From: a virus
IMG/VR virus record: IMGVR_UViG_3300012983_002309
Location: 1 to 13,602 of that record
Direction: 5' to 3' (one strand)
Length of the DNA: 13,602 nt
In this document: piece by piece, positions 8,608 to 9,999 of the stretch
Layout: each line of letters starts with the position of its first letter
Position numbering within the stretch: the stretch's first letter is position 1
Position numbers and translations under genes: made by a program
Notes under the pieces: generated by a model
What the model was told of the DNA's origin: nothing
Database searches by the model: none
The model's input: only the letters and a program-made list of their open reading frames with translations

Positions 8608-9999
8608 ATGGCTCAAAAAACCTTAATTGGGGGTACCGCTTACAATGTTGTAAGCGGCACCTCTTTAGTCAGTGGCACCAAATATAATATTATTGGCGGA
8701 AGAACTTTAATTGGCGGAACAGGTTATAATATTATTTTAAAGAAAAATACAGCCATGCTATATAGCGATGGTAATTTCATATTTTAGAATAGTGGCAGAG
8801 TAGCATCAGGAAAAACCTTAGTAGCAAAATATACAGATTTTGAAGATTGTACTACACCGCCCTGGAATGGTAAACAAAATACTTTTACTAATGTAGTTTT
8901 TAACACAGAAATAATGCCAACCAGTATAGCTAGTTGGTTTTATAATGCAAGAAATATGAAATCTAATGTGAGAAATTTTACTAATTTAAAAATGAATAAT
9001 GTTACTAATATGAGTTATGCTTATTATAATTGTTATAATTTAACAGGCTCTCCAGTATGTGGCAACAAGGTTGGTAATATGGTTAGTACTTATAGAGAAT
9101 GCTGTAATCTAACAGGGTCTCCTGTCTGTGGACCAAATGTTACTAGCATGATGTATACTTATTTCAATTGTCGCAATTTAACAGGCTCTCCAGTATGTGG
9201 ACCAAAAGTTACTCTTATGCGAAACACCTATGCTAATTGCTGTAATCTAACAGGGTCTCCTGTCTGTGGACCAAATGTCATTAGCATGTAGTATACTTAT
9301 GAGAATTGTCGCAATTTAACAGAGTCTCCCGTATGTGGTAATAATGTTACTAGTATGTATGGAACCTATGATAATTGTTGTAATCTAACAGGATCTCCCG
9401 TGTGTGGTAATAATGTTACTAGCATGTATGCAGCTTATACTAATTGTTATAATTTAACAGGCTCCCCCGTGTGTGGACCAAATGTTACTAGCATCAGTTA
9501 TGCTTATTAGGACTGTTATAATTTAACAGGGTCTCCCGTGTGTGGTAATAATGTTACTGCTATGTATCGTACTTATCATAACTGCTATAACTTAACAGGG
9601 TCTCCCGTGTGTGGTAATAGTGTTACTAATATGGGTCTTGCTTATGCTAATTGTTATAATTTAACAGGTGTTGCTATAGTTGGTAGTAATGTTACCAACG
9701 CAACGGGGGCTTATGCTAATTGTGAAAATATTAGTAGAAACGCATATATTTATTCTAATAATATTACTGACATGCTTCGTATATTTGATCGTACACGATA
9801 TTATTCTGCATTTAATATATATGTGCATGAAGGCTCTGCAACTCATGCATTAATAAGTAGCGGGAATTCTAACGGAAGTATGTTTGGCGTATCTTTAACT
9901 TGGACAAACGCAGGAACTTATTTATATAATGCTAGTTATCGAACCTATGTTTATCTTGTTGCAAACGTTGCTGCAGCAAGAGCAGCAAATGGAGATTAA
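8608..9999 (+). CDS. BspA/LRR_5-like repeat protein (candidate receptor-binding/adhesin), 463 codons with three in-frame TAGs read through; stop TAA
   Basis: RBS aaggagg (8592-8598) then a 9-nt spacer to ATG 8608. One frame stays open to TAA 9997-9999 apart from TAG at 8785, 9289 and 9508. The 22-aa repeat YxNCxNLTGSPVCGxNVTxM continues unchanged across the TAGs. The N-terminus has three TLIGGTxYN decapeptide repeats. Confidence 0.75.
9005..9790 (+). repeat. eleven tandem 66-bp coding repeats (aatttaacaggctctccagtatgtgg...aatgttactagcatg)
   Basis: The units are near-identical at the nucleotide level. Variation is concentrated at a few codons. Confidence 0.8.

Follow-up and report, generated by a model that had tools for sequence, protein, structure and literature searches.

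DUF285 (PF03382) is a 26-residue repeat of bacterial surface proteins with members in Mycoplasma, Listeria, giant viruses, and phages; the NCBI name for such proteins is 'BspA family leucine-rich repeat surface protein'. BspA-like leucine-rich repeat (LRR) proteins are represented by PDB entries 4fs7 (BACOVA_04585), 4fdw, 4gt6, and 4h09, which are gut-bacterial cell-surface proteins of Pfam family LRR_5 (PF13306). Internalin J from Listeria (PDB 3bz5) is a secreted LRR protein of the bacterial invasion family and contains a cysteine ladder. The present work concerns a viral gene for an LRR protein, located at positions 8608 to 9999 of IMG/VR virus record IMGVR_UViG_3300012983_002309. Positions 1 to 13,602 of this record, the whole stretch of DNA that was analysed, are referred to as the window. 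A single intact gene occupies this interval, and the phage that carries it is an uncultivated gut phage.

In modular phage receptor-binding proteins, the N-terminal anchor is conserved and the C-terminal domain can be exchanged, an arrangement that is general for tail fibres and tailspikes. To our knowledge, neither the GGTxYxI triple anchor motif described below nor an LRR distal domain has been studied experimentally in any phage.

Phage genetic code reassignments in published surveys are restricted to TAG-to-Gln and TGA-to-Trp and are concentrated in structural and lysis genes (10.1101/2021.08.26.457843; PMC9523058). The TAG-to-Gln reassignment, code 15, is found in gut phages including crAss-like phages, Lak phages, the Garnet/Amethyst/Topaz clades, and the phAss-1 group, which share with the window phage in-frame TAG codons in structural genes, a phage-encoded tRNA-Sup(CUA), and Gln at positions conserved in homologues (10.1101/2021.08.26.457843; PMC10607447; PMC9523058). 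The window phage differs in that none of 50,697 deposited phage genomes shows DNA similarity to it and in that its TAG codons are sparse in the 28 kb examined. The kind of fold, BspA-named phage proteins, and code 15 have all been documented before; the LRR gene is a further member and changes no concept.

The interval 8608-9999 is probably a late phage gene, translated whole by reading TAG as Gln through the phage's own supE-like tRNA(CUA). Its product is probably a tail protein with a BspA/DUF285-type LRR solenoid that would bind the host.

Gene Integrity and TAG Recoding

The LRR gene is a single frame that runs uninterrupted when TAG is a sense codon, and the ENA gene caller likewise gives a product of 463 residues. 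Under the standard code (table 11), the same interval splits into open reading frames of 59, 125, 51, and 153 residues. The AAGGAGG ribosome-binding site is placed just inside the TAA stop of the upstream gene. The source contig is ENA ERZ27246346:k141_1074180 (36,786 bp; loci L001 and L028), of which 28 kb was examined. A Logan assembly of SRR6060192, possibly from the same sample, matches 2,404 nt at 100% identity and has both of the TAG codons that lie in this stretch. Against the 50,697 deposited genomes, megablast found no match to the whole window, and tblastn with the LRR protein returned three weak matches only, at about 28% identity.

The in-frame TAG codons of the LRR gene are sense codons, and their use is TAG-to-Gln phage recoding of a known sort. 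Code 15 is recognised here by the lack of TAG terminators, in-frame TAG in conserved genes, a tRNA(CUA), and a TAG over a Gln column. None of the 36 genes called on the source contig ends in TAG; all stop at TAA or TGA. The column of the first TAG is Gln in 11 of the 13 aligned full-length homologues that have no internal stops. The second and third TAGs, being at variable positions, give no information on the amino acid; the repeat register runs through both without a break. Apart from a few doubtful small open reading frames, TAG is used in the examined 28 kb only in two genes of the fibre module. The TAGs of the other one, the large fibre gene at 5648-8593, counted at 3 to 5, sit at variable or unaligned positions, so they provide no confirmation of Gln.

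Two tandem tRNA(CUA) genes are encoded on the same contig upstream of the window. Both carry U1 and G73, and the 75-nt gene also carries G2-C71 and G3-C70. Such acceptor features are those of bacterial tRNA-Gln, including the supE amber suppressor. The variable region is enlarged by about 20 nucleotides in both the 91-nt tRNA(CUA) and the 94-nt tRNA-Ile(UAU) of the window, a rare feature in tRNAs of these types.

Fold and Family Membership

The LRR protein is predicted to be a solenoid of the BspA-like/DUF285-type LRR branch. AlphaFold2 models were made for P0004, a 420-residue homologue with the same architecture and 57% identity, and for residues 302-463 of the window protein, its stop-free C-terminal part. 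The P0004 model has a predicted local distance difference test score (pLDDT) of 92.5 and a predicted template modelling score (pTM) of 0.85, with low confidence in the N-terminal 45 residues only. The model of residues 302-463 reaches a pLDDT of 93.8 and a pTM of 0.89. The top Foldseek matches in the PDB are 4gt6, 4fs7, and 4h09, in agreement with the fold of solved BspA-like LRR proteins, and a family profile searched against PDB sequences identifies 4gt6 at E=5e-6. Among viral models (BFVD), Foldseek gives 40 matches at E<=1e-3, mostly named as BspA-family LRR or 26-residue-repeat proteins. Their sources are gut phage contigs, Aeromonas phage D3, Klebsiella phage N1M2, Bacillus phage G, a crAss-like phage, and giant viruses. 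The LRR/BspA-like solenoid proposed in a preliminary description of this DNA is thus supported by the models and by Foldseek.

Among sequence profiles, Pfam gives for the window protein DUF285 at E=0.014 (15.6 bits against a cutoff of 25, below threshold), and LRR_5, to which the preliminary description had likened the repeats, gives no match even at E up to 1. Of 30 family members scanned singly, 15 match DUF285 (best E=2e-11) and only 2 match LRR_5 (best E=8.6e-6). PHROGs holds no family for the LRR protein, and NCBIfam returns no repeat model for it, only spurious short matches such as nitrite reductase. Kazal_2 and zinc-finger Pfam matches in relatives were rejected as artefacts of regular Cys spacing. 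A word-indexed search finds more than 1000 homologues, the best 57% identical, many of them with precomputed DUF285 and some with LRR_5 annotations. An exhaustive profile search gives 80,054 cluster representatives at E<=0.001 and 5,226 at E<=1e-30, with proteins of up to 7,403 residues.

The core spacing of the repeat, N-V-T-x-M-x3-Y/F-x2-C-x2-L-T, is that of the DUF285 consensus. The window repeat has 23 residues instead of 26, its linker from L to the next N-V is 3 residues shorter, and its family adds a conserved Cys at position 22. Unlike the BspA-like LRR surface proteins, the window protein has no LRR_5 match and no secretion signal, is encoded by a phage, and carries a phage-type N-terminal adaptor. 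Its repeat contains an invariant LTGSPVCG in place of the concave-strand segment, and a putative second Cys ladder. By likeness to Internalin J, the two Cys residues of each repeat may form buried ladders; Internalin J belongs to a different LRR subclass with a different repeat length and has one ladder, whereas the window protein would have two.

Repeat Array and Sequence Variability

The solenoid is encoded by a tandem array that Tandem Repeats Finder (TRF) places at 8995-9668, with a period of 69 nt, 9.8 copies, 71% matches, and a score of 424; the higher-order 138- and 207-nt periods have marginally better scores. The preliminary description had given a period of 66 bp or 22 residues, but the unit is 69 nt, and even the consensus in that description counts 23 residues. 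Its total of eleven units agrees with the register layout, in which ten canonical units are followed by a degenerate one. Cys-13 is present in all ten canonical units and Cys-22 in nine. Across the family (623 units from 118 homologues), Cys occupies position 22 in 95% of units. Each unit contains two N-x-T motifs, and homologues have from about 5 to about 36 units, the latter in locus L029.

The units are old. Pairwise DNA identity among units 1-10 averages 72% (range 59-84%), and at four-fold degenerate sites of conserved residues 44% of unit pairs differ, in place of the very high nucleotide identity claimed earlier. The units have diverged at synonymous sites, and their likeness is kept by purifying selection on the protein and not by recent homogenisation. 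The most variable positions within the window gene are 7, 8, and 11, with entropies of 2.65, 2.52, and 3.12 bits. In the 623 family units, positions 7, 8, 11, and 14 reach 3.45-3.62 bits, and Tyr, Ser, Arg, Gly, and Asn dominate there. These hypervariable positions would fit a binding surface, with a signal of divergence between species and not of population polymorphism. In a strain-level search, the only other copy is the identical Logan sequence, and relatives anchored on the neighbouring family-2 glycosyltransferase (GT2) are 72-86% identical.

The placement of TAG within the repeats follows from the same variability. The preliminary description placed the TAGs exactly on variable codons. 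This is correct for 9289 and 9508, at repeat positions 7 and 11, which both rank among the top three in variability, but a third TAG at 8785 lies outside the repeats at a conserved Gln. Gln makes up 0.8%, 4.7%, 4.8%, and 3.5% of residues at positions 7, 8, 11, and 14, respectively, and the remaining positions are largely fixed to non-Gln residues. The four variable positions are also Tyr-rich (20-28%), and the Tyr codon in the LRR gene is TAT, one mutation from TAG. The second and third TAGs lie on variable codons because only such positions tolerate Gln and because they are rich in Tyr (TAT). The placement is therefore expected and requires no special mechanism.

In relatives, TAGs inside repeat units are found at positions 8, 10, 11, and 19. 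In the LRR gene at 8001-9725 of locus L009 (IMGVR_UViG_3300031555_002194), the unit DNVTDMSWAqFNCRNLTGSPVCG carries a TAG at position 10, where 97% of units have Tyr. Either the replacement of Tyr by Gln may be tolerated here, or TAG may have another meaning in this relative.

Modular Architecture and Tail-Fibre Neighbourhood

The LRR protein is composed of an N-terminal module, a small cap or linker domain, the solenoid, and a C-terminal cap (Table 1). In the P0004 monomer model, the N-terminal module forms low-confidence beta strands (pLDDT 48-62); its proposed role is that of a portable unit for anchoring or oligomerisation. The same 45-residue N-terminus, at 50-74% identity, is joined to DUF6273 or other unrelated domains in loci L030-L034, where the same 120-residue protein gene follows each adaptor-bearing gene. 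A family-alignment scan of contigs matched those of relatives through the N-terminal motif only. The window family thereby resembles modular phage receptor-binding proteins: its shared N-terminus bears LRR, DUF6273, or other domains and is followed by the same gene. On reading, the N-terminus (MAQKTLIGGTAYNVVSG...) has no signal peptide, lipobox, or anchor. At the other end, the last 11 residues, NVAAARAANGD (9964-9996), are nearly invariant among homologues that are otherwise about 50% identical, and they are modelled as a terminal helix.

Table 1. Features of the LRR gene, its window, and the source contig
Feature	Position	Strand	Description
Two tandem tRNA(CUA) genes	L028 3872-3962 and 3963-4037		3.1-3.2 kb upstream of window base 1, same contig; ARAGORN
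tRNA-Ile(UAU) and tRNA-Cys	206-666 (206-299 and 592-666)	+	Last two of a 10-gene tRNA array; ARAGORN
Large fibre gene	5648-8593	+	About 980 codons; 42-nt repeats xSHAEGxxTxASG, Pfam YadA_head, five in-frame TAG; TRF
Ribosome-binding site AAGGAGG	8592-8598	+	9 nt 5' of ATG; direct sequence reading
LRR protein gene	8608-9999	+	463 codons; ATG at 8608, TAA at 9997-9999; three in-frame TAG read as Gln
N-terminal module, residues 1-45	8608-8742	+	Three copies of a ~14-residue G-G-T-x-Y-x-I beta motif; in all full-length homologues
N-terminal cap or linker domain, residues 46-129	8743-8994	+	Includes degenerate pre-repeat; homologue model pLDDT >89, strands and one helix
In-frame TAG no. 1, codon 60	8785-8787	+	Outside repeats; conserved Gln position, context ..VFQ..
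Ten canonical LRR units, 69 nt / 23 residues	8995-9684	+	Consensus xNVTxMxxxYxNCxNLTGSPVCG; TRF, register table, 623-unit profile
In-frame TAG no. 2, codon 228	9289-9291	+	Unit 5, repeat position 7; TAT (Tyr) there in three other units
In-frame TAG no. 3, codon 301	9508-9510	+	Unit 8, repeat position 11; Gln there in 4.8% of homologous units
Degenerate eleventh unit	9685-9753	+	SNVTNATGAYANCENISRNAYIY; 36-55% DNA identity to other units
C-terminal cap domain	9754-9996	+	Ends in conserved helix NVAAARAANGD; AlphaFold2 model of residues 302-463
GT2 glycosyltransferase	10023-11078	+	Pfam Glycos_transf_2 E=1.6e-18; no TAG; directly 3' of LRR gene
120-residue protein gene	11078-11440	+	Homologues follow adaptor-domain genes in L029-L036
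44-residue XkdX-family protein gene	11437-11571	+	Phage_XkdX E=1.5e-8, above threshold; end of tail-fibre module

The LRR gene is part of a tail-fibre module. The order of YadA-head-repeat fibre gene, LRR gene, GT2 gene, 120-residue protein gene, and XkdX gene is repeated in loci L012 and L029, and relatives are located on IMG/VR viral contigs of 33-248 kb. The fibre gene has a probable TTG start after an AAGGAGG. It encodes about 60 copies of a 14-residue unit, and two of its TAGs (5744 and 5750) are one codon apart. Host assignment from the labels of metagenome-assembled genome (MAG) bins, which include Kiritimatiellae, Collinsella, Oscillospiraceae, and others, was rejected as unreliable.

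The GT2 gene is a conserved partner of the LRR gene. It lies immediately 3' of the LRR gene here and in most relatives selected by their LRR gene, and conversely the LRR gene is directly upstream in 7 of 10 metagenome loci selected by GT2. Loci in which the same N-terminal adaptor bears DUF6273 have no GT2. Among syntenic relatives, GT2 is 72-86% identical, whereas the LRR protein is 30-58% identical. PHROGs labels the glycosyltransferase 'GtrB-like', and a reading of its sequence for transmembrane segments, which finds none, suggests a soluble enzyme. Its nearest solved relatives are 5tze/5tz8 and 6h1j, the Staphylococcus aureus wall-teichoic-acid glycosyltransferases TarS and prophage-encoded TarP. 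No pertinent work emerged from a literature search on virion glycosylation. The two genes might form a functional cassette in which the TarS/TarP-like GT2 either glycosylates the LRR protein, with its two N-x-T motifs per repeat, or modifies a cell-wall glycopolymer that the LRR protein recognises. This proposal is speculative and carries a low probability.

Several other genes surround the module. Directly 3' of it, a gene at 11693-13602 runs off the window (828 residues in L001, 11671-14157) and encodes a Major Vault Protein shoulder domain (E=1.7e-23) and a Vault_3 repeat (E=7.6e-9), a domain unusual for a phage. At 3821-5386, a 521-residue protein contains DUF2828 and DUF7788 and matches PHROG 850, 'RNA-binding protein', at E=2e-130; its gene adjoins the tRNA array, and the relative L027 encodes a homologue as well. 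An EcoRI-type adenine methyltransferase (1875-3053, E=2e-85) and an alpha/beta-hydrolase esterase (691-1527) are encoded between the tRNA array and the fibre module, both without TAG.

Proposed Function and Alternative Explanations

The combination of an anchor, an exchangeable and fast-evolving distal domain, and variable positions rich in Tyr, Ser, Arg, and Gly is the signature of a receptor-binding protein, and it suggests this function for the LRR protein. In the proposed mechanism, the 463-residue product begins with the 45-residue module of three beta motifs and a small cap, continues as a solenoid of 10-11 contracted repeats of 23 residues, and ends in the C-terminal cap. The N-terminal module may dock the protein on the tail or oligomerise it there, leaving the LRR solenoid as the exchangeable distal host-binding domain. 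Positions 7, 8, 11, and 14 of each repeat could form the specificity surface. The TAG codons would tie translation to the suppressor tRNAs and delay expression to late infection, according to a published model.

The analysis shows the integrity of the gene and its recoding, fold, family, synteny, and modularity; presence of the LRR protein in the virion, binding, and a regulatory role of TAG are inferred. Several points weigh against this mechanism. The variable positions appear, from sequence, to map to the convex or flank side of the solenoid, not to the concave face used by many LRR receptors, and the window protein is under the curated thresholds of both DUF285 and LRR_5. The tRNA(CUA) genes are assigned to tRNA-Gln by analogy, through acceptor features of Escherichia coli tRNA-Gln. 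No lysis or capsid genes that would confirm a late region were seen near the LRR gene. One 248-kb viral contig has three paralogous copies, and some relatives are not beside fibre genes; therefore, not all family members need be receptor-binding proteins.

It is highly improbable that the locus is a pseudogene or a set of separate short open reading frames under the standard code, with TAGs that are true stops or assembly errors. Table 11 does break the frame into four short products, but the repeat register and conservation persist across every TAG, the first of which is over a conserved Gln. TAG terminates none of the 36 genes, the contig itself encodes two tRNA(CUA), and identical TAGs recur in the assembly of SRR6060192, which is possibly the same sample. 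A second alternative is a bacterial-type BspA adhesin or moron that is not a virion component, either a host-surface protein of lysogenic conversion or one borne by a gut bacterium. The preliminary description had likened the repeats to a type common in gut-microbe adhesins. In favour of this alternative, the solved structures nearest in fold are LRR proteins of bacterial cell surfaces, some relatives are in MAG bins, and the adjoining 'GtrB-like' glycosyltransferase has a typical moron function. This origin is nevertheless quite unlikely: the gene sits in a phage tail module between the fibre gene and XkdX, its portable N-terminal module is common to other phage distal-domain proteins, and no signal peptide, lipobox, or anchor is read at its N-terminus. 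Because of its TAG recoding, the LRR gene would also be untranslatable in an uninfected standard-code host.

Within the phage, the LRR protein could instead be a virion decoration protein, a non-receptor adhesin for mucus or non-host surfaces, or an intracellular LRR effector or anti-defence protein, and hence not a host-range determinant. LRR solenoids are generic binders, large relatives encode several paralogues per genome, and a separate large fibre gene already lies upstream. This alternative has some merit but is rather doubtful, as a modular adaptor with an exchangeable distal domain in a fibre module is the classic architecture of a receptor-binding protein, and divergence of the LRR part far outpaces that of its neighbours (30-58% identity against 72-86% for the glycosyltransferase). 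The recombination-driven variable surface envisaged in the preliminary description would make the gene an actively diversifying cassette, in which intragenic recombination, gene conversion, or a diversity-generating retroelement (DGR) produces variants at the variable codons. The range in repeat number from about 5 to about 36 units, the family-wide hypervariability of the same positions, and the slightly better scores of the 138- and 207-nt periods, a hint of past block duplication, would agree with this. Such a cassette is unlikely in view of the old units, whose divergence at four-fold sites (44%) excludes recent homogenisation. In the 28 kb examined, blastn finds no second copy of the LRR-gene DNA, with self-matches only, and therefore no DGR template there; no reverse transcriptase occurs among the Pfam labels of called genes. 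The sole other copy is 100% identical, and the nearest relative is just 57% identical. A recoded tail protein that would bind the host is the probable product of the gene.

Significance

The apparently broken repeat gene is intact, and it is probably a late gene in a phage with TAG recoding. It is a clean example of recoding in structural genes, with suppressor tRNAs on the contig and a conserved Gln under one TAG. The gene also identifies a very large repeat superfamily, the phage members of which are essentially uncharacterised. The conserved LRR-GT2 pairing is the most interesting lead of the analysis; if the cassette is real, receptor recognition and the modification of receptor or ligand would be inherited as one unit. 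Cys-rich BspA/DUF285-type LRR proteins with 23-residue repeats, located in the tail modules of uncultivated gut phages, may determine the host range of phages whose gut-bacterial hosts lack a cultured model.

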